The notes under the pieces were generated by a model that did no database searches, was not told where the DNA came from, and was given only the letters and a program-made list of their open reading frames with translations. Both the position numbers and the translations under genes were made by a program. Source: a virus (Duplodnaviria > Heunggongvirae > Uroviricota > Caudoviricetes). Taken from it: a stretch of 42,224 nucleotides of DNA. Location of the stretch: positions 101,319 to 143,542 of the IMG/VR virus record IMGVR_UViG_3300031853_000004. One strand, 5' to 3'. This document shows positions 1 through 41,682 of the stretch, in pieces; position 1 is the stretch's first letter; the number at the start of each line of letters is the position of its first letter.

Positions 1-3000
1 AGCAGTAATTTCAACTCTCTGTTTAATAGTATCTCCCCCAAGTTTATTAAATCCAGTTCCTTTAACAGACATTCCGCTAAATACTTTTAGCATGTCAGCC
101 ATATTTCTTACCATATTGACCGCATTTAAAATATTTTCAGTATCAGAAGAATTTAATACCAACTCTTTTTGATGTAACATTGCAATTCTTCCATCGCCAT
201 TTCAGTCACCAGTATAACCACCTGTATCGAACAGCTGTTCAGGTTTTACTCACCCAAGCCATCCGCCATCTTCAGGATCTTCCAAGTGTACAGAATAGTC
301 TCCGGTATATTGATATCCTCCAACAGAAGAACCTGAAAAATCTGAAATTCTCACCGCATTTGCCTGTCCAGAATACCAATTTCCTGCGGGGTCTTCTCCC
401 CAAGAGTCATAGTAGTATCAACCATTGAATCCTACAATATCTCCAACATGGAAGCCGCCTCTACTGCCACCGTCTCCATTACCTGAGATAGAAGGAGGTT
501 CAGGGACATTCCCATATTTATCTCTACGGCCAGCTGCAATATCATCAAGAATGGTTTGATAATTTAAATTCTGAGCTTTAGATTGATCTAAATCTTCTTG
601 TGCTTTTCGTAATTGTTGAGCAGTAACCGCACTTGAATTTTTAACATCATCTAGTTGCTTACGATATTCTTCAAGCTGCTCTGTAGCTTCAACTAATTGA
701 GCATTATCACCCATTAAAGCATCATTTAGCTCACGAGTAGCCGCGGCTAAATCTTTAGTTGAGTTAGTTGCTTCTATAATAGCACCATCAATATTATTAA
801 AACCATTAGTTACTATTGGAGCTACTTCATCTTCAATTAAAGTGCGATATTTTTGAGCTTCATTTTGTATATCATTGCTTGCTCGATTATTAACATTCAT
901 TAGAGTATCTATATCTTCGATAACTCCGTCTATAGTTTCATTTCATTGAATACCTACTTCTCCAAGAGACTCATCAGTTTTTTCTTGGATAGCCGTCATA
1001 GCTTGTTCGGCCATGTCTCTAATATTATCTGTACCAGTTTCAGTCATTCATTGAAGAGCACCAACCATACCCTCTCAAGAATCACCCAGCTCTTCTGAGT
1101 AGGCAGCCATATCTCTTGCAAAATCCTCTTCGAGTTTTTTAAGAGCATCCGCAGCATCTTTATCACCTTGCTCAGCTCTTTGAACCAAAGCTTCTCTTTG
1201 TTGGATATAATTTTGATATGCACTTAACCAATCTGAGTATGTATTCATTCTGTTTTCAGTAGACATATTATAAGCATCAAACTCAGTTTGTAATAAATCA
1301 GCTTCTTTATCTCTTACATCATTTTGATTAGCAGAATAAACATATCTGTAATTACCTTGAGTATCTCTGCGAAGACGCATTTGATTTTTATTATTTCTAG
1401 CGTCTTCTAATGCTATCTGTTTTTGAAGAATTTCAAGTTGAGCATTTGCATATTTTACATTAAACTCTGAAAGATGCTCTTGATCTTGTAGATATTTCAC
1501 TTGCTCTTCCATTGCATCTCTAATTTGATTTTGAATAGCTAAGCTTGAACCCTGAGCATCGTCCAAGAAGTCAAGATATTTAAGTCTAAGTTGTTCTATT
1601 AAGTTAGCTTTCTGTACTTCATCATAATATCTATCAGCATAATTTTTGTCACGTTCTCAGTCAGAAGATATATCATCTATATTACGAGTACCAAATAAAC
1701 GTTGATTTTCTTTCGCTGTAATTTCTTTAATTGCATTTTCAAAAGCCTTTTGCCAAGCATCCGCAACTTCTTTCTGAATTTCAATTAATCTATCTTCTGC
1801 TTCTTCCATATTAGTGCGGACTTGCTTTGCTATGTCAGAAGTTTTATCTTCAATCGCTTGATATCTTGCTACTCACTGTTCATAGATTAACTTTTGATCT
1901 CTGGCTTGCTGTAAGGTAGTACGACCTATTTGGTCATAAAGTTTAGATATGTTACCAAACTCTTCTTCTCCATATACCAGAGCTCGTACATCAGCTATTG
2001 TCTCAAGTTTATCAGTTAATCTATCATAACGATCAATTTGTTCTTCTTCTCTTTCAGCAATATCATCATAGCCATCTATGATATCTTCTTCAAGTTGTTC
2101 TCAAGCTTTTTCTGACTCTAAAGCTAACTCCCGCATTCTATTATAAGCATCTTCATATGCTTCATATAAAGCTGCGGTATTTTGCTGGAAAGGATTATTA
2201 GCTGCATTTGGATTATCTATCCAAGTTTGCAATCTAGCTAAATCTTGACTTGCCAAGCCTAACGCGCCAGTCCCTAAAGGATTATTAGCAGCCGCTCCTT
2301 GTTGCTGTCGGAAGAATGCCGCATATGATTGATACGTAGCACGACTCTCTGCATCAGTAGCTCTTCTAGCCATTTCTTCATTCTTGTCAATTAATGTTTG
2401 ATAATAATCTATAGCTTCTTTCTTGGTTCCACCAAAAATATTTTTAAGCTTCTCTGCATCTACTATAGTTGCTCTAAATGGAGAATCTGATTTATAATCT
2501 GTAAATAAACCAAGAAGTTCCGCAGCATTGTCTCGGAGTTCTTTAATATCATCTATTGCTTGTTGTGATGCTTTATATGCTTCAATCCGCAAATCTTCAA
2601 TAGCGTCTTTTAATTCTTCTATTTGATTTAGAGTTTCTTTAATTTCTTTACCTTGAAGTTCATCATAACGTTGGTAAAGATCTTTAAATTTATCCAGGTC
2701 TTTTTGAGCATTTTCTATAGCAAGTTCTAAATCTTCCTGACCTTCTTCTGTAGCGGTATTATTATATTCATTAATTAAATCATTGACTCTACCTTCAAGA
2801 GATTTTAAGACTTGAGGATAATTGGAAATAAATCCTTCTGAATCGAATTTCGTTCCAAAAGGAGAAAGTTGATTTCTTAAATCATTTCTTTCTTTTTCTT
2901 GGATAGCAAGTTTTTCTTTTTGGAGGTCAATCTCTTTTTCAAGCAAAGTGATTTGCTTATTCATATTGGCGCGACCTTCAGGGCCAATTAATCTATCAGT

Positions 3001-6000
3001 TTCTTGTTGAATTCCTGAAAGAGTTTCTTCAACATCATTCAACTGAGTATTAACTTTTTCATAAAGATCTATTTCTTCTTCGATAGGGTCTTTGGTCTTT
3101 GGCTCATAAGTATCTCCTGAGCCGCCACCGCCTCCACCGCCTCCTCCTCCTTTGCCTCCACCAGAGCCACCGGTATTCTTACGATAAGTACCCCCTCCAG
3201 AATTCCCACCTTTCTTTCTGAGAGTTACTTGAGGAACGGATATGTTAGATACACCTGTTTGAGCAAAACTGATTGCTGACTTTACGCTAGATCCTATGGC
3301 TGCTCCTGCTGCGCCTCCTGCAAAAGCTCCTACTACACTAGAAGCTACATCTGCCATTGCAGATCCAACATTATTTGTCATTTCTATAATTGGCATAGGA
3401 ATCGTTGCATTACTTATTTCAACTTCATATCCTATTCCATCAAAAGCATTATTAATAACTTCTGCAGCTTCTGGAGAGGCAGCCATCATCTCAGATAAAG
3501 CATCTAAGAATGGAGCATCATCTAGAGTTGCACCTACTTCTAAATCAGGTAAAGCTGCGTCTGCTATACTTAGTCATTCTATTAATTGAGGAATTTGTTG
3601 CTCTGTTAAAGAAGTAGTCTCTAAATATGCTTGTAAATTAATTGGATCAGCGAAGGCTTCTCTTAATCTATAAATAGCAGAAGTATCGCCTTCTGCTAAT
3701 TCTCCCAATGCTCTTAGCGTATCTTCGCTTTGTAAAAAAGTATCGGTAATTGCTGATGGATCAACGTTCAAAATTTGACTTAATATATTTTGTAAATCAG
3801 TATAAGCAGAAGCTATTTCTCCAGGTGAACCATTTGAAATTGCATCATTGATATTTTCTCATTTTTCAGATAATTCATCCATTCCATTTGCTGTTTCTAA
3901 CGCTTCAACCGCAAACTGTTTTAAATCTTCTTTTGCTTTATCTAAGGAATTTGCTAAATTTTTTACTTCTTTTTGTGTTTTTTCAAAATCAGGCGCTTCT
4001 TCAGACATGTTCGATAATGCTTTATTTGCTTCTTCATAAGAATTAGTTAATTCGTCTATAGTTTCTCTTAAAGTATTGATTTCTCCTTCATCAACACCAG
4101 CCCCACCGCTTGCTTTAAAGCGCTCAACGTAATCGTCAATAGGTACATCTTCCATTTTAGCTGTCTTAAAAATCTCTTCTATCTTCTCTTGAGAATATCT
4201 ACCTATTTTACTAAGATTTTCTTCGGAAGGCTCTTGTAAGACAGTTTTTAATATAACTTCTAAATTTTCTCCATTATTTAATCTATTAACGATATTTCTT
4301 AAATCTCTTTCAATTTCTTCTCTTGTTTTATCTTGATCAATTGCTCCAACAATTTTAAATTGATCTTTAATATCAATATTTTTTAATATTTCAGAAAAAT
4401 CAATATCTTTACCTTGTCCACTAAGAGATAATTCAACTTCTTTTACACCTAAAGTTGCTTTAGCACTCTCATCAGTAATTAACTTTAATGCTTGTTGTAT
4501 TTTTTGTAATTCAGAAAAAGTATTTTCTGAAAAATAATTTGAAACTAAATTATTATTATCTGACTGTAAAATATTTAAAATTTCTGATATATCTGTTATA
4601 TCTTCAAATTGCTCTTGGAAATCATTTTGTTGCGATCTCGCATTAAATTCACTCTGCTGTGCATCTTTTGCATTTTGAGCATCTTCTGAATTTAAAAAAT
4701 CTTGAGTTAATTTAATTGCTCGCTCTATTTCAGCATTAGTATCTTTTCAAGCTTTAGTTCTTTTTTCTTCATTAGAAGCATTATTACTTTCTTCTTGAAG
4801 CTTTTTAAACTCTTCTAGTCTGTTTTCCATCGTACCAATAATTGCAACATCATCAGATAAATCAAAGATATTTGTAGAAGAAAGAACGTCTCTTATCTCT
4901 TGACTTTTAGTTCCACCAATACCAAAACGTCCTCTATATAATTCACTTCCACTATTTATTGCAGCTTGCCCAAGTTTAGAGCCAGCAGCTCCGCCTTCTC
5001 ACCATTCTGTTCCAAGACTGTCTTTTCTAACTTGTTCAGCCGCATTAATTAAATCATCTAATTTAGCTTGATTGGCATTTTCAATAGCCTTCGCCAGACC
5101 ATTAAAATTATTTGCGGCAATCATAGCATCAGTACCTGCTATACCAAGTTCTATACCTAACTCTTTCGCACTATTCTTTAATTCATCAGAAACTTTTCCG
5201 CTTTCTTTAAAAGATTCATATAGCTTATTAAAATTATCAATTTTATTACTGAAATCTTCACTTTCAGTTTTTAATTCATCAAATAATTCTTTATTTTTTC
5301 TTCTTGTCTCTTTTACTGATTCTACATAAGAATTAAAAGCTGCTACTGCTACTCCAATAGCAGTTGCAAGAGCTAAAAAGGGATGAGCAAGAATAACAGC
5401 TTTTAAAGAAGAAAAACCATTTTTTACTAAATCTAGTATACTTGGTAACTTCGCAGCTTTTTGGTTTAATCCTTCTGTAGCAATATCAACCATTGCCATC
5501 CCTTTTTCAACGCCAGGAGCTGCATTTTTAAGTTCATTTAGTTTTTTGGTAGCTTCTGCTCCAGCATTTGAAACATTTTCAAGGTTTTTAGCATAATTAT
5601 TCATGCTACCGCCATTACTAATATGCTCAATCAATTCATCATAAGCCAAAATTCCTTGATCTTCGATTTTTTTTAATTCTGCAACTATGTCTGTTGATGA
5701 AGACGTGAATGTGTTTGAAAATATGGACAAAAGATCTTTTTGTTTTAAAGTATCAAAAGCTGTAACTAACTGAGGAACAGTCATACTTAAATTCATTATT
5801 GTCTGAAGAATTTTATCTCCAGTTGTTAAATCTTCATTAGATCAAATACTTCCTAAATTTTGAAAACTTTGTCAAGCAAAAGCTAATTGTCCAACAGCAG
5901 CAGTAGTATCAATAATAGATTTTATTTGTTTCTGATTATCTAATCCTTCATTAAAAGCTTTAGCTTCGCTTTCAGAACGTTGTTTCATAGCTTTTCCTTG

Positions 6001-8471: not shown

Positions 8472-9038
8472 TTAATTAAATAAACTTTCTTCTGGTAATT
8501 CTATTTTTTTAGGTTCTTTTTCTTCTTGAATTTTATTATTCATTCCTCATTCATCTGCAACATTTAAAGTTTTTAAAGTATTATCATTATTCATAAAACT
8601 TTGCAATTCTTTAGTAAAAGTATCTAAATTATCAGAACTCATCATATCTGTTTGACTTAAAGCCCCTCCAAAAGAAAGAAGATATTCTTTATAGTCATTG
8701 AAATATTGTGTAGTTATACTACCTAAATAATCAAGATATGACATTGCACCTTCTGCGGTATTTATAGTTAATTCTTGATATTGATTAAATAAAGTTTGTA
8801 AAATCTCTTCTTTAATCATTTTATCCCAAGCTTCCATAGGATTGCGGTTAACCATATCTACAATTTCATCATCAATATCATCTACTAAATAAACAGCTAC
8901 TTTACACCAAAAAGCCTGCTCAAAGACATATTGATTAAGAAATCCATTATCATTAGCCGCATCTAAAGCAAAATTGATAATTTCATATCTCTCTTGAGTT
9001 GTAAGTGGACTAATAATTTCAAAATTTAAATCTAACAT
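8472..9038 (-). CDS. Hypothetical protein (188 aa), possible tail assembly chaperone; 1 in-frame TGA
   Basis: RBS AAGGAGG. The track ORF stops at TGA 8547; reading it as Trp extends to TAA 8472. The function guess rests only on position directly upstream of the TMP gene. Confidence 0.7.
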
Positions 9039-9074: not shown

Positions 9075-9103
9075 ATTATATCATATATTTATAGAGTTGT
9101 CAA
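9075..9103 (-). promoter_or_regulatory. Consensus sigma70/sigmaA promoter inside the late region
   Basis: TTGACA-17 nt-TATAAT with a TG extension, upstream of the ATG at 9038. Confidence 0.8.
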
Positions 9104-10659: not shown

Positions 10660-10692
10660 AAAAAGAGGGCGATATAAAATCACCCTCTTTAA
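10660..10692 (-). terminator. Intrinsic terminator after the major tail gene
   Basis: AAAGAGGGTGA-loop-TCGCCCTCTTTTTTT on the minus strand. Confidence 0.75.
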
Positions 10693-10715: not shown

Positions 10716-11005
10716 TTAGTTGCCACCAGTTGTACTACCACCGGTTGTACTACCACCAGATTGTGTACCAGTAACTTGATCAAAGACTGATTTACCATAA
10801 AGACCGCTGAAATACTCATCGTCATCAGCTGTACGATTCTTGTGACCGATAATGTCTTTGTTAGCATAATTATGCTTAGCATCTTCGGGGTCAAGAATCT
10901 GAAGTGTAGCAAGAACTTTCTTTGTCTTATTAAACTTAGTATATGCTGGGAAGCAGTCAACAGTAAATGAGAATGTCGACGGATCGCCTGAGTTGGCCAT
11001 CGTAA
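10716..11005 (-). CDS. Major tail (tube) protein, exon 2
   Basis: After splicing the junction reads ...SNFT-F-TMANSGDPSTFSFTVDCFPAYTKFNKTKKVL...; ends at TAA 10716. Spliced product 374 aa with no TGA. Confidence 0.8.
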
Positions 11006-11178
11006 CATCATGTTCAGTTAAGTTCGCTACTCTTAACCCGTTCGTTCTATAACGAACAGCTGCATCTTTATATATACATGCAGATCAGACTATATCTTCA
11101 TCCTATTCTGGTATAAAACAGGAGCCTTCCACTTCGAGTCGCTTGACTCTACTTCCTTTCGGAATAGTCGTTGAACCT

Positions 11179-11688
11179 TTAAACTTGCCAAGTTTTCTTA
11201 TTTAAAATATAAGAAATATTTGAACGAGTACATCCTACTTGATCAGCGATTGCTTGCTGAGTAAACCCTTGTTCTCTTAAAGAAAAAATATTTTTTATAT
11301 CATCTTCTGTTAATTTAGAAAAATTACTTTTTACTCCTTTTCTGGTACTTAAAAGACCAGTTTTCCAAGCATGTTTAATATTTTCTTCTAAAGTAACCCA
11401 TTCCATATTATCAAAATTATTATTTAATTTATTCCCATCTTTATGATTTACTTGTAACTTCTCCATGTTTTCCACCGGTCTGAAAGCTATCATTAATAAA
11501 CGATGAATAGAATAACTTTCACTAGGAGTGACATCATCATATCTCATAAGATTAACTTGATAATATCCTCTTTTTAAAAATTTTGTTAAATTTCTATGGG
11601 AATATTCACTATAAACATCTCCATTTTCATAAATTCAATAATAATCTTTTACAATTGGAATAAAATCATTTATTTTTCTTTTTTTCAT
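11179..11688 (-). CDS. Intron-encoded HNH homing endonuclease (169 aa) with C-terminal HTH; 1 in-frame TGA at codon 18
   Basis: RBS AAGGAG, ATG 11688. MKKRKINDFIPIVKDYY(W)IYENGDVYS...QVNHKDGNKLNNNFDNMEWVTLEENIKHA (HNH motif)...TQQAIADQVGCTRSNISYIL (HTH). TGA at 11635. Confidence 0.88.
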
Positions 11689-11725
11689 ATAAATCTCCTT
11701 TAATTAAAAACTTTTATTATTTTTA

Positions 11726-11754
11726 ATTATACCAAAAAAGATTTATCTTGTCAA
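11726..11754 (-). promoter_or_regulatory. Consensus sigma70 promoter inside the intron, driving the HNH gene
   Basis: TTGACA-17 nt-TATAAT upstream of the ATG at 11688. Confidence 0.8.
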
Positions 11755-11845
11755 GTTTACTTGGCTGCTGATTATGCTACTTTTTGTAGCACGTCCCAGC
11801 AATTCAAAAGGTAAGAACTATACATTACTGTATAGCCACCCTTAC

Positions 11846-12680
11846 AGGTAAAGTTGGACTGTATCTTACCACGTGGAATAACGAACTGAGCAGGAAGATC
11901 CTGACCAGTAGCTTCTTCACGGAAAAGAGTATCCATCTCAATATAGTAATAGCCAGCAAATTCGTTTGCACTAATCTCAAGTTCCTGAGCGCCGCCACCG
12001 TGAACAGTATAGCAATCAATACGAACTGTATCACCAGCAACAACGCCAAGATCAGTATAATCTACAAGATCACCAGAAACAGCGATCTTAAAGAAAAGAT
12101 CTGTGACACCGTCAATATTAATAACACCGCGATCACCAACTGTAACGGCATTTGTTAAAGCTGCATCTGTAAAAATCTCTGCTTGAGAAATAGCAGATAA
12201 GAAGTTTTTAGGAGCACCTGCGCTATCAAGTGTAGTAGCATAAACAGGAGCTTCCTTAGTCACTACAAGAATATCTCCATCACGTACATCATGTGGAAGT
12301 TTAGCATAGAGATTAGAGCCAGTTCCTTCTATAACTAAGTCATAAACAGTATGTACGTAAACTTTCTTACCAGCAGTTTCGTTTGCTTTGCCCGTACCTT
12401 TAACGATACCAGCTCCAGATAGGATAGCAAAAGATTCTGGACTAATAAGAGCATCTTCAATAGTGGCTGTAAGAGTTTTCTCTCCATCCCAACCAATAAG
12501 ACGTGGGTTACCTTGTCCACCAGTGGCATATACCGTAGTAGCTGCCCCTTCGAGATTAGAGGTTTTAGCAGTATCGATGTAAAGGACTGGCTGCCCTGCA
12601 TCGAAGTGCTGGTTGCCGATATCGACAGAAGTTAGAGGTTTGAACACAACGTTCGCTACCTCGCGCACACCCATACGCAT
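11846..12680 (-). CDS. Major tail (tube) protein, exon 1
   Basis: RBS AAGGAGG, ATG 12680 (MRMGVREVANVVFKP). Motif PVLYIDTAKTSNLEGAATTVYATGGQGNPRLIGWDGE recalled from major tail proteins of large siphoviruses; located between head-tail genes and the TMP. The track ORF 11772..12737 reads into the intron. Confidence 0.8.
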
Positions 12681-18104: not shown

Positions 18105-19196
18105 CTAATCACCGATCTCCTTGCGGCGAGTACGTGTATCATCAAGTGAAGAATCTTTGTAAGCGCAAATCCAATTAATTTGACCCATATGAGCGACGGT
18201 ACCAACGCCTACCTTCTGATACATCTGAACATCGGTTGACCAATCTTCATTGTTATCAGTGGTACGAAGTAGAAGTTGCCCCTCAAAGACAATTTTAACA
18301 GGCTTCTCTGTGCCAGTAGGAATAATATAAGCAGTTGAAGGATTAACGACAAAATTAGTATTTGTCTCATCAACAAGACCCTGCTGTAGAATTACAACAT
18401 TATGACCCTTATAATTACCGAGCCAACCATCTGCCCACATACGATCTTTCATAGCGTCAGACCAACGACCCTCAGAAGGAATCATCTTATTGGCAAACGC
18501 TTGTGTACAATAAATTGTTGCACGGCCATACTGATCAGCAATAGCGAGTAACTCATCCATTACTTCCTCGTCAAAGCCATTGACAGTTGCTTTATTAACC
18601 TCAGGAATGTCGGCAATCATAGCAGTAAGAGCCGCAGCTACCTCACGAGCAATGAAATAGTCAAACTCCTCCATGATAATCTGAGAATAATCAGCGAGTG
18701 ACCAACGTCCGTCAAGAACTTCTTCGAAGCCAATGCGGACTGCGCTGGTGATAGCACCAGTCTCAACTGTCATCTCAGCACCATCAAGCATGAATGTCTC
18801 GTAACGAGCTGCAAGCGCGCCACGGGTAACAAATGTACGAGCACGACGCTTAGAAGCTTCAGTTACACGAATCTTAAATACTGCACGATCACCCTGAGCA
18901 ATATGCTCAACATCAGCAAATTGCATATACATTTTATCGACACGGGCAGGAATAACCTCTTCAAGCACATGAGAAACTAGAGCAAAAACCTCGTCACGAT
19001 TAGCTTTCCAAGTATAATAATCTACTTTACCGCCATTATAACCAAGTCTTTCAGAAAGCTCTTTTGCAAGAACTTCATTCACTTGTTCAATAGAATACTG
19101 TTCATTCTTACCATTAAAGGAGAAATTAACAGAAGTGCCTTTATCTGCACGAACTGCCTGTTTAGCAAGCATTTCTAAATCTTTAAAATCTAGCAT
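18105..19196 (-). CDS. Major capsid protein (363 aa), no TGA
   Basis: Strong RBS GGAGG. Located after the protease/scaffold and accessory genes; size and codon bias of a highly expressed gene; 7 Trp, all TGG; ends in TAG. Confidence 0.8.
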   Translation of the reverse strand: MLDFKDLEMLAKQAVRADKGTSVNFSFNGKNEQYSIEQVNEVLAKELSERLGYNGGKVDYYTWKANRDEVFALVSHVLEEVIPARVDKMYMQFADVEHIAQGDRAVFKIRVTEASKRRARTFVTRGALAARYETFMLDGAEMTVETGAITSAVRIGFEEVLDGRWSLADYSQIIMEEFDYFIAREVAAALTAMIADIPEVNKATVNGFDEEVMDELLAIADQYGRATIYCTQAFANKMIPSEGRWSDAMKDRMWADGWLGNYKGHNVVILQQGLVDETNTNFVVNPSTAYIIPTGTEKPVKIVFEGQLLLRTTDNNEDWSTDVQMYQKVGVGTVAHMGQINWICAYKDSSLDDTRTRRKEIGD

Positions 19197-26066: not shown

Positions 26067-27149
26067 TTATTTTTCCTCCTTCCCATTGCGGCACTCTCTA
26101 CATTGACTATAAAAACCTTCTTTATTGGAATTTTTAGGGAAGAAGAAAGGATGTGCAGGCATGACCTTCCCGCACTTTGAACAAGTTTTCCAATTTAAAG
26201 AAGAATCTGTTTTATAATTGTTTAAGTAATGTTTTAAAATGTAGCGTTTTTGTACTTCTTTAGAGATTAATTTGGGAATGCGTCTTCTTCAAATAGAAGA
26301 ATAATACTGTTCTGTATGATTAACTCCATAATGTTTTAAAACTAATTCTTGAATTTGTTTGTTAGAGCGTCCATCTACTTTTCAAATTAAAATATCTCAA
26401 AGCATTGGGTATTTTTGTTCTAAAGCTGCGGATGCTACCTCTTCTAAATCTATTAAGTGTCAAAGCATATCACTTTCTAAAAGATATCAAGATTCTTCTT
26501 TTAGTGGTTGGTAGTATTGAAGAAGAAAAGATACGTGATCTGGATTTAAAAGAGTGAGTAGATCATCGCTATATGGGTATCCATCTTTTCAGTAAACTGT
26601 TTCTGGAATATCAATATTTGCTAAATATTGTGTTTTATTAGTGGATATGTTGAGTGCCATTTTATGAGAACTTTTTATTAGATAAAGTTGTTTTCAAGTT
26701 TCTATAATAGTTTTTTTTAAGTTTTTGCGGCGTTGACCTGTTGCGTGTTGATATTGTCATTCTAATTTTTTTATTACGTTAAGTCCTTCAGCTATGCCTG
26801 GAATATTTTTTATATCTTCTTTAGTTAGAGGATCTTTATTGTCAAGTTTCATTTCTTTGTTATCACACATGATAGAATAAAGTCCATCTTCTCCATTTTC
26901 TAATCTATCAATTAAACCTTCATAAGATATCTGTCTTTTGTCTATTGTATGTTCTCTATTGGGAGTTGTTATTGGATAATCTTCTTTACGTTCTTTTTTA
27001 GTTTGATTTTTATCTCGGGTAAAAAGTAGATAATCCCCCAACAGAGAAAGTTCATTAGAGTTTGGGGTATATTTTGATAAAAGTTTATCAACAAATTCTT
27101 TGCGGGATTCGATGGTTTGTAAGGAATAATCTAAAAACAAGGTTCGCAC
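26067..27149 (-). CDS. First gene of the late block: putative transcriptional regulator with HTH-like segment and C-terminal Zn finger (about 360 aa); 8 in-frame TGA
   Basis: TGA at 26757, 26694, 26589, 26487, 26460, 26397, 26382 and 26289; TAA 26067; C-terminal CSKC...CREC; HTH-like DILI(W)KVDGRSNKQIQELV. Start is GTG 27149 or TTG 27140. Confidence 0.72.
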
Positions 27150-27980: not shown

Positions 27981-28197
27981 TTATAGCTCAACATCAAAAT
28001 TTTAACTACCATTCTTATATAATATTTCAAAATACTAAGTCGATCCCCTATATCTTTTATGTATTAACATAGATAGCATCAAAACGTTATGACCGCTCAC
28101 CACAATTTCTCTACCGTTCGCGGTAACTATTGACTCTAGCTATCGTATGCTGTATATTATTAGTAAAGAGAAGATAACAAACAGAGAGGATAGGACA

Positions 28198-28389
28198 ATG
28201 AAGAACGTAGTAGCAATTAAGGATATGACCAACGGCCTTAATGAAAAACTCGCAAACGTTGGTGATAGGTTTGAGGTAGATAATATTAGGGAAAACAGGA
28301 AGTATGGAAAATTCTATGATTTAAATGGTATCAAACACAATCTCACAATACATGAAAGTGTCTTTAGTGAGTATTTTAAAGAGGTCTAA
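28198..28389 (+). CDS. Hypothetical protein (63 aa)
   Basis: RBS GAGAGGA; upstream promoter with TTGACT; TAA stop followed by a GAGGTC/GACCTC hairpin. Confidence 0.75.
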   Translation: MKNVVAIKDMTNGLNEKLANVGDRFEVDNIRENRKYGKFYDLNGIKHNLTIHESVFSEYFKEV

Positions 28390-28635
28390 CAAAGACCTCT
28401 TTTTTTATGTCTAAAAGAAGATATCACATAAAAGTTATCGTGGTTGGGCGAAATTGTACCACACGCACACAAAGACTGTCAAGCGAGAATTTTATTTTTT
28501 CCACTCACATTTATAATTCTACCGTTCACCATTCACCCACATTTTACTACCGTTCATCCGTGATGCTTGACGTACTAGCAACACAAGAGTATAGTATTAG
28601 ATAGTTAAAGGATACAACAAAGAGAGGACAGAACA

Positions 28636-28782
28636 ATGACCGTAGCAGAGTTAATAAAGCAGCTTCAGGAAATGCCCCAAGATAAGGAAATTAATATTCC
28701 TGTTGATGATTATGGCTATGGGCCAGTTAGAAGAGTAGAGATAGACGAAACGTTTGATGTGGTTCTTATAGATTGCGACTAA
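28636..28782 (+). CDS. Hypothetical protein (48 aa)
   Basis: RBS GAGAGGA; MTVAELIKQLQEMPQD...; terminator 28801-28829. Confidence 0.75.
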   Translation: MTVAELIKQLQEMPQDKEINIPVDDYGYGPVRRVEIDETFDVVLIDCD

Positions 28783-29058
28783 ACATTTATCATAAATAAT
28801 AAAAAAGGGCTCAAACGAGCCCTTTTTTATTGCATAAAATTGTTATTACAAAAATGGTATCGAGGTTGGGCGAAAAATTATAACACGCCGGCACAGAGTT
28901 TGTCAAGAGAAACATTCAAATTACCGCTCACGTCTACAATTCTACCATTCACCGTTCATCCATAATTTACTACCGCTCACGGTAAAGCATTGACACATTC
29001 AGCTAGTAAGCGTATAGTATTAGATAGTTAAAGGATACAACAAAGAAAGGATAGAACA

Positions 29059-38655: not shown

Positions 38656-39334
38656 TCACAGGGTTATGGGGTTCCCCTAAAAAACCCCTCGCATAAAAAA
38701 TAGTATCGTTGAGGTAGTGTGAAGCCGTGAGCCGCTACCTCAACGTTTATTTTTTTATATCCAATAGTTTCATCTTTTATGTCCAAGAGGATCGGTAAAG
38801 TAATTAAAATTTTTATGCGGCGCCGGCAGGATCCAGCACATCAAATATTTAATCAGGATCGCCGGCGATCGTGCATCAAACATTTAACTAATTTTTTTAA
38901 CTAAATTTTTATATAAAAATTCATAGTAGCCGGCCGTGACATTATACCACATCCGCGACATCTTGTCAAGCAAAATCCACAAATCCTACAAAATGTATTT
39001 TCTATGAAGTCCCTAAAATCGTGATACAATGTTATGGGGTTATATCCAATCGAACACATGTTTGATAACATTAAAAAATAGAACATCAGTTCTATAATGT
39101 ATAAGCATATAAATCTTGAAACCATATTCGATCGAACCTCCCTCGCGCGTCCTATACGGCGACTTTTCATAGAAATGGGGTTCTATACGCCAACAAGCCA
39201 TAGATCCTGAAATTCAACCATCCAATAGAAAGAAACAAAATAAAGGACGTGCGGCATCTCGCTATACGTCTTTCAAGAAGAATAATATATAAAAATTTTA
39301 ACTAGCATATTGATATAAAAAATTAAAAATGAAA

Positions 39335-40209: not shown

Positions 40210-40354
40210 AATAAAATCTCCTTTTCTATCTGGTCTTTAATGACCTTCTTTTAATTTACTAATATTATACTATTTCTTTTTAAGTTTGTCAAGAGTTTTT
40301 TTATCTCCTTTGGCGGAAAATTTTTAGCAACGCCGCACCATCCTTAAAGCAACG

Positions 40355-41653: not shown

Positions 41654-41682
41654 ATTATACTATATTTTTTTTAGACTGTCAA
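41654..41682 (-). promoter_or_regulatory. Consensus sigma70 promoter for the small-ORF/tRNA operon
   Basis: TTGACA-17 nt-TATAAT. Confidence 0.8.

Follow-up and report, generated by a model that had tools for sequence, protein, structure and literature searches.

A homing endonuclease gene with an in-frame TGA in the tail-tube intron of a phage that reads TGA as tryptophan: suppressor dependence of probably neutral origin

Introduction

A homing endonuclease gene that sits inside an intron of a phage tail-tube gene raises an unusual question. The gene has a promoter of its own, of the type used by the host, and its 18th codon is TGA, which the standard code reads as a stop. Has this mobile element adopted the altered genetic code of its phage as a lock on its own expression? 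Or is the TGA a tolerated consequence of that code, the first sign of a decaying gene, or a codon that lies ahead of the true start of translation?

The stretch of DNA analysed here (the window, 42,224 nucleotides) comprises bases 101319-143542 of the 143,542-bp IMG/VR phage record IMGVR_UViG_3300031853_000004. All of the relevant genes lie on the minus strand. Positions are those of the window unless they are given as genome positions.

TGA as a Tryptophan Codon in Late Genes

The phage genome is 143.5 kb long with 32% G+C. When it was read with code 4, the coverage by long open reading frames rose from 0.60 to 0.77. In the GH25 lysin gene, TGA codons 11 and 153 align with Trp residues of solved GH25 enzymes, including the Trp of the W-I-A motif. 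The match of TGA to conserved Trp and the gain in coding density under code 4 place this phage among those recoded from TGA to Trp. TGA is found only in the structural block, in the GH25 and CHAP lysis genes and in a few small unannotated ORFs, and the genes encoding DnaE, NrdD, gyrase, DnaB and RecJ are free of it. Judged from the sequence, TGA is a Trp codon in this phage and is used in late and lysis genes only. Decoding of TGA as Gly (code 25) was ruled out, as TGA aligns with Trp in the GH25 enzymes. A host that natively uses code 4 (a wall-less Mollicute) is unlikely, since the phage encodes GH25 and CHAP lysins with peptidoglycan-binding domains; the TGA-free early genes of the phage further oppose such a host.

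TGA accounts for 123 of the 175 Trp codons in the late genes (70%). A bias of TGA toward the 5' ends of the late genes was looked for and is absent, the positions being uniform along the genes (KS p 0.72). Despite their late class, the genes for the most abundant virion proteins avoid TGA: seven TGG and no TGA occur in the capsid-like gene (18105-19196), and three TGG and no TGA in the tail-tube gene (exon 1, 11846-12680). This avoidance suggests that suppression is costly in highly expressed genes. Another gene (8472-9038, minus strand) lies behind a perfect promoter and contains a single TGA, at codon 164 of 188, which could be either a true stop or the beginning of a 24-residue extension that depends on the suppressor. 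Recoding is seen in relatives of the tube gene at 59-71% identity (L014-L024), but the closest relative (L013, 75% identity) shows none. Short evolutionary distances have therefore sufficed for the code to change within this group; L013 has no TGA in frame.

A Putative Suppressor tRNA

Genome 26448-26544, minus strand: putative tRNA with anticodon UCA, which forms a cloverleaf on re-folding

CUUCAAA forms the anticodon loop of the cloverleaf, which also has a long extra arm and a 3' end, G-CCA, that is encoded in the gene. The locus matches the Rfam tRNA-Sec model weakly (25.2 bits, E 0.0077). ARAGORN at default settings and RF00005 detected no suppressor tRNA in the genome and missed this locus; the reading that the phage has no suppressor tRNA was dropped, as genome 26448-26544 folds as a cloverleaf with a UCA anticodon. 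The phage thus encodes a tRNA with anticodon UCA, a putative suppressor.

The genome also contains a second TGA-bearing HNH gene, outside the window (genome 26547-27290, minus strand), with TGA at codons 16 and 109. A gap of 3 nt separates its end from the tRNA(UCA) gene. As this HNH gene carries TGA and abuts the tRNA, its own translation would need the neighboring tRNA.

A Group I Intron in the Tail-Tube Gene

11846-12680, minus strand: exon 1 of an SPbeta YomU-like tail-tube gene (phrog_2729 virion structural protein, E 1.1e-44), with its start set at the ATG that aligns with the starts of homologues
11006-11845, minus strand: group I intron of 840 nt in this gene, identified from the two halves of RF00028 and the restored frame
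10716-11005, minus strand: exon 2 of the tail-tube gene, stop codon included, identified from the junction and from comparison with homologues
10662-10690, minus strand: strong intrinsic terminator after exon 2 (12-bp stem with 5 G-C pairs, T run)

RF00028 matches the insert at both ends, at 11709-11801 (20.7 bits) and at 11067-11246 (31.1 bits). Neither half reaches the gathering score of 50, since the model is split by an ORF in P6. The 5' splice site lies after ...AACTTTACCT, and P1, as read from the sequence, pairs ACCU (ACCU/GUAA at the splice site) with GGGU, the U-G wobble included. The 3' splice site lies after ...CATGATG, with a terminal G (the intron ends ...GAUG). Deletion of 11006-11845, with 11846 joined to 11005, gives the continuous reading ...KIQSNFTFTMANSGDPSTF..., and the spliced frame across the junction is the same as in the intronless homologues L013, L014, L017 and L025; L032 differs by one residue. 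On the restored frame, the 5' U-G pair and the terminal G, the insert is accepted as a group I intron, and its splicing is predicted. No other group I introns were detected in the genome, nor does it contain GIY-YIG genes. In one relative (L005), the homologous tube gene carries Pfam YomU_Tube and adjoins homologues of YomV and YomW as well as the tape-measure gene. The terminator after exon 2 would end both the tube and the endonuclease transcripts.

The tail-tube gene is a hot spot for introns. Three insertion sites were seen, all with related HNH endonuclease genes: the site of 11006-11845, a site 29 nt downstream (after ...GDPS) and a site between codons 54 and 55. The loci with tube-gene introns are L002, L004, L005, L006 and L026, along with L035, L038 and L041 (at about 2680-3500).

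The Endonuclease and Its Cassette

11179-11688, minus strand: I-HmuI-like HNH homing endonuclease gene of 169 codons under code 4, with HNH_3 and HTH_7 domains
11695-11701, minus strand: Shine-Dalgarno AAAGGAG, six bases before ATG 11688, read directly
11726-11754, minus strand: intron-internal sigma-70 consensus promoter TTGACA-17-TGnTATAAT at intron P6, 12 of 12 positions matching

Promoter, Shine-Dalgarno and ORF form a cassette within the P6 region of the intron. The encoded protein consists of an N-terminal beta-sheet, an HNH motif and a C-terminal helix-turn-helix, and Pfam recognizes HNH_3 (33.8 bits, cut-off 24.8) and HTH_7. The catalytic His and Asn residues are in place, with N81, H82, N90, N94 and N103 invariant in 38 sequences. 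An AlphaFold (AF2) model built from these 38 sequences is confident from residue 1 (pLDDT 94.1). In a fold search the top match, over the full length, was 1u3e_M (E 3.2e-09, probability 1.00, 179 aligned columns), and in sequence searches the only solved homologue was PDB 1U3E (E 5.8e-12), which is I-HmuI, the HNH nicking endonuclease of the DNA polymerase intron of Bacillus phage SPO1. Both proteins share the order of N-terminal sheet, HNH motif and C-terminal helix-turn-helix, and both are encoded in a phage group I intron. The two differ in that they are only about 23% identical and occupy different host genes; I-HmuI, moreover, contains no recoded codon and has Gln at the position of the TGA discussed below. 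With the HNH_3 domain and its catalytic residues, the full-length fold and the empty alleles of relatives, the gene appears to encode an intact I-HmuI-like enzyme, presumably a nicking one. Its closest homologue (L002) is 53% identical over residues 3-169; the nearest homologues are 53-70% identical and come from loci that show no sign of recoding.

The earlier note on this DNA had described a perfect TTGACA-17-TATAAT promoter and a strong ribosome-binding site inside the intron, and both were found as described. The window contains five exact copies of the 29-nt pattern (9075-9103, 11726-11754, 38941-38969, 40264-40292 and 41654-41682), far more than the 0.01 copies expected from shuffles. 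There are roughly two dozen perfect promoters in the whole genome, most of them correctly oriented before genes in TGA-free regions, and only three within the 50-kb structural block. The endonuclease promoter is of the class that precedes the TGA-free early genes of the phage. Some near-perfect promoters precede TGA-rich genes, such as genome 12857-13576 with 10 TGA. The related introns of L002, L004 and L026 retain the two hexamers, their 17-nt spacing and the TG but have a different spacer sequence; in the intron of L005 the internal promoter is deleted.

11689-11746, minus strand: predicted hairpin in which the promoter spacer is paired with the Shine-Dalgarno (-13.7 kcal/mol, z -3.27)

Only 2 of 200 shuffled sequences fold as well as this hairpin. 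RNA that begins after the -10 hexamer has no such pairing (-2.2 kcal/mol), so the hairpin would be restricted to read-through transcripts that begin upstream. The hairpin is not conserved: in L002 and L004 the z-scores are near 0, and L026 has a different structure. On predicted folding, sequestration of the Shine-Dalgarno is a possible second gate on translation, and the lack of conservation in L002 and L004 makes it no more than a lead.

A Sense TGA at Codon 18

11635-11637, minus strand: in-frame TGA, codon 18, read as Trp (...KDYY-TGA-IYENGDVYS)
11545-11547, minus strand: first in-frame start downstream of the TGA (Met48), a candidate alternative start with the nearest GAGG about 20 nt upstream

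The earlier note had read the TGA as the Trp of DYY-W-IYENG, with a 17-aa peptide under the standard code and TGG for the other three Trp. The frame 11179-11688 confirms each of these points: table 11 gives a 17-aa peptide, Trp codons 97, 108 and 167 are TGG, and TGA accounts for one Trp codon of four. Apart from this TGA, the 169 codons contain no stop or frameshift. Residues 3-17 and 19-47, on either side of the TGA, align with full-length homologues, and Tyr17 and Gly23 are identical in 35 of 35 homologues. Because homology is unbroken across the TGA, with the invariant Tyr17 and Gly23 around it, the TGA can be taken as a sense codon that is most likely read through. Given that TGA is read as Trp and that the phage encodes tRNA(UCA), the full-length enzyme needs suppression.

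What kind of position has been recoded? Codon 18 lies within a strand (E17-20) of the model, and the aligned residue of I-HmuI is Gln. In the 35 homologues, column 18 is occupied by 13 different residues (Thr 6, Tyr 6, Ile 4, Leu 3, Ser 3, Phe 3, Arg 3, Glu 2, and Val, Met, His, Lys and Trp one each), which places it among the alignment's most variable columns, and all four nearest relatives have Thr. Whether the position is aromatic in homologues had been proposed as a test of the earlier reading; it is not a conserved aromatic position.

Relatives of the Intron and of the Endonuclease

At the site in question, no intron is seen in 29 related tube-gene loci (47-75% identity), two of which end too early to tell, nor in the 11 TGA-recoded loci among them. 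A long residence of the intron in a recoded lineage, which the earlier note had proposed, is unsupported by these sequences because the relatives show no intron at this site and the three conserved Trp of the endonuclease are still encoded by TGG.

The same promoter-endonuclease cassette is found in standard-code relatives, that is, in loci whose neighboring genes show no sign of recoding. There, codon 18 is ACT (Thr), and the gene has no TGA. The comparison of this codon between recoded and standard-code phages, as suggested in the earlier note, thus yielded data on the standard-code side; close homologues of the endonuclease in other recoded phages were searched for and none were found. One further gene of L002, a syntenic gene of 508 aa, is too diverged for TGA positions to be read from it. 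Among 80 more distant homologues, internal TGAs occur only in L084, a recoded phage fragment. Its free-standing tandem-HNH gene (L084 2521-3408; G001 28117-29004) has TGA for all four of its Trp, the first at codon 4, and the 22 genes around it have no TGA and 46 TGG. The phage studied here also has a third HNH gene, located in the early region (genome 59391-60245), that is free of TGA and lies behind a perfect promoter.

Damage is seen in three of the four related endonuclease sequences. L004 has a frameshift, L026 has a frameshift in an A run at about 4860, and L005/L006 have a TAA at about codon 57. Homopolymer sequencing errors are a possible source of such breaks.

Neutral Consequence, Lock, Decay or Late Start?

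Taken together, the locus is probably best explained as follows. The tail-tube gene of a TGA-to-Trp phage is split by a mobile group I intron that carries, in its P6 loop, an endonuclease cassette in which codon 18 is a sense TGA, decoded as Trp presumably by the phage tRNA(UCA) at genome 26448-26544. Full-length endonuclease would then be made only where this tRNA is present and charged, as would the products of the tail, head and lysis genes. The dependence on suppression would be a real consequence of the code, and its origin most likely neutral: the TGA may stem from a substitution that the protein tolerates, at a surface site in the first main beta-strand where residues vary, and that the phage-wide code change rendered harmless. 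Delayed production of the endonuclease is a plausible side benefit. The neutral origin is favored because column 18 has been filled by 13 residues, the standard-code cassettes have ACT, TGA encodes one Trp of four, and TGA positions are uniform along the late genes. Four observations count against this explanation, namely the promoter class shared with TGA-free genes, the TGA at codon 16 of the second HNH gene, the four of four TGA in L084 and the TGA preference reported for Agate phages.

The same four observations bear on a different explanation, in which selection has maintained the TGA near the 5' end as a timing lock. Messenger RNA from the host-type promoter would yield a harmless 17-aa peptide until the suppressor tRNA accumulates, and nicking, or the passage of ribosomes through the intron, would be confined to a late window. 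The earlier note had taken this view. Its premises, a host-type promoter and a dependence on suppression, hold; the selected lock itself does not follow from them, as there is one TGA and the standard-code cassettes have none. That an early-class promoter lies within a late operon argues for the lock, as does the place of the TGA at codon 18 of 169; I-TevI provides a precedent for delay, by sequestration of the ribosome-binding site (PMC3073962). Transcription of the endonuclease may well precede suppression, which is the setting where a gate would matter. A timing gap is unproven, however, because the nearest consensus promoter upstream of the tRNA(UCA) is also host-type. The lock is further opposed by the single TGA at a non-conserved position, by a use of TGA below the late-gene average, by the standard-code relatives that retain the promoter without such a gate, and by the third HNH gene, with its perfect promoter and no TGA. 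Selection for late-only cleavage, the other outcome that the earlier note had offered, is not demonstrable from one TGA, and the late genes show no 5' bias of TGA. As far as the sequence goes, a single TGA at this codon looks indistinguishable from drift, and no evidence was seen of a specially evolved lock. A selected lock in this gene is thus possible but rather doubtful, while it is credible that endonucleases as a class are under selection to be gated by recoded stops.

An extension of the lock would stack two translational gates. The hairpin would silence the endonuclease on the tube pre-mRNA, where ribosomes would then leave the folding of the ribozyme undisturbed, and the TGA would block transcripts from the host-type promoter until the code switch. 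This arrangement is a speculative one and, on present indications, unlikely.

Could the TGA instead be a nonsense mutation in a gene that is heading for loss? Loss of the endonuclease gene is common once an intron has become fixed, and three of the four related endonucleases are broken. Decay of this copy is nevertheless improbable: TGA is a sense codon in this phage, the 169 codons hold no second stop or frameshift, the promoter, the Shine-Dalgarno and all catalytic residues are intact, and the structural model is confident throughout.

A start past the TGA at ATG 11547, which the earlier note had named as an observation that would overturn its reading, was rejected as highly improbable. This ATG is the next start available past the TGA, and an active enzyme of 122 aa made from it would retain the HNH motif and the helix-turn-helix, but Met48 has no Shine-Dalgarno at a usable distance, lies inside strand E42-49 and would cost the protein five of its six N-terminal strands along with the invariant Tyr17 and Gly23 and the near-invariant Tyr42. 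The first 17 codons, which lie ahead of the TGA, share homology with the N-termini of family members.

Relation to Known Systems

The concept of gating by recoded stops is already published. In Agate phages, an intron endonuclease family is reported to prefer TGA over TGG significantly, and in-frame stops have been proposed to block production of the endonuclease until late infection (Borges et al., bioRxiv 10.1101/2021.08.26.457843). The phage described here adds a further example. It resembles the Agate phages in its intron homing endonuclease, in the restriction of TGA-to-Trp to late and lysis genes, and in genome size, low G+C and close standard-code relatives. As in that proposal, an in-frame TGA would withhold the endonuclease until the code changes, and the recoded stop lies in an otherwise intact endonuclease gene. 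In contrast to the Agate case, where the intron is in an early gene and TGA is preferred, the intron here is in the late tail-tube gene, the endonuclease has its own early-class promoter, and only one of four Trp codons is TGA. No preference for TGA over TGG is apparent in this gene; set against the 123 of 175 in the late genes, the probability of one or fewer TGA among four is 0.08.

A second parallel is the T4 td intron, in which I-TevI is encoded with an internal promoter and a hairpin in the P6 loop that sequesters the ribosome-binding site (PMC3073962). Translation of I-TevI is thereby delayed, and loss of this control impairs splicing (PMC3073962). The endonuclease described here is likewise a P6-loop ORF with its own promoter, its predicted hairpin would hide the Shine-Dalgarno in read-through RNA only, and the predicted outcome, delayed or restricted translation of the endonuclease, is shared. 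The two systems differ in the promoter, which is late in T4 and matches the host sigma-70 consensus here. A further difference is that the hairpin here has support in one sequence (z -3.3) only and is not shared by relatives. Finally, the recoded stop codon is an extra layer in the present case.

Concluding Remarks

What does this locus mean for the biology of recoded phages? Caution is due, since neutral drift would be expected to leave such a mark, a lone recoded stop at a variable site, in any gene that is not needed before the code switch. If the two-gate reading were true, selfish endonucleases of recoded phages would repeatedly gain recoded stops as a fitness-sparing device, and the carriers of standard-code cassettes (L002, L004 and L026) would serve as natural controls. 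The occurrence of the same promoter-endonuclease cassette without TGA in standard-code relatives makes the timer hypothesis testable and gives the locus its comparative value. To conclude, this case adds a clean and well-delimited example to the proposal that stop codon recoding in phages gates harmful or late-acting proteins, selfish endonucleases included.
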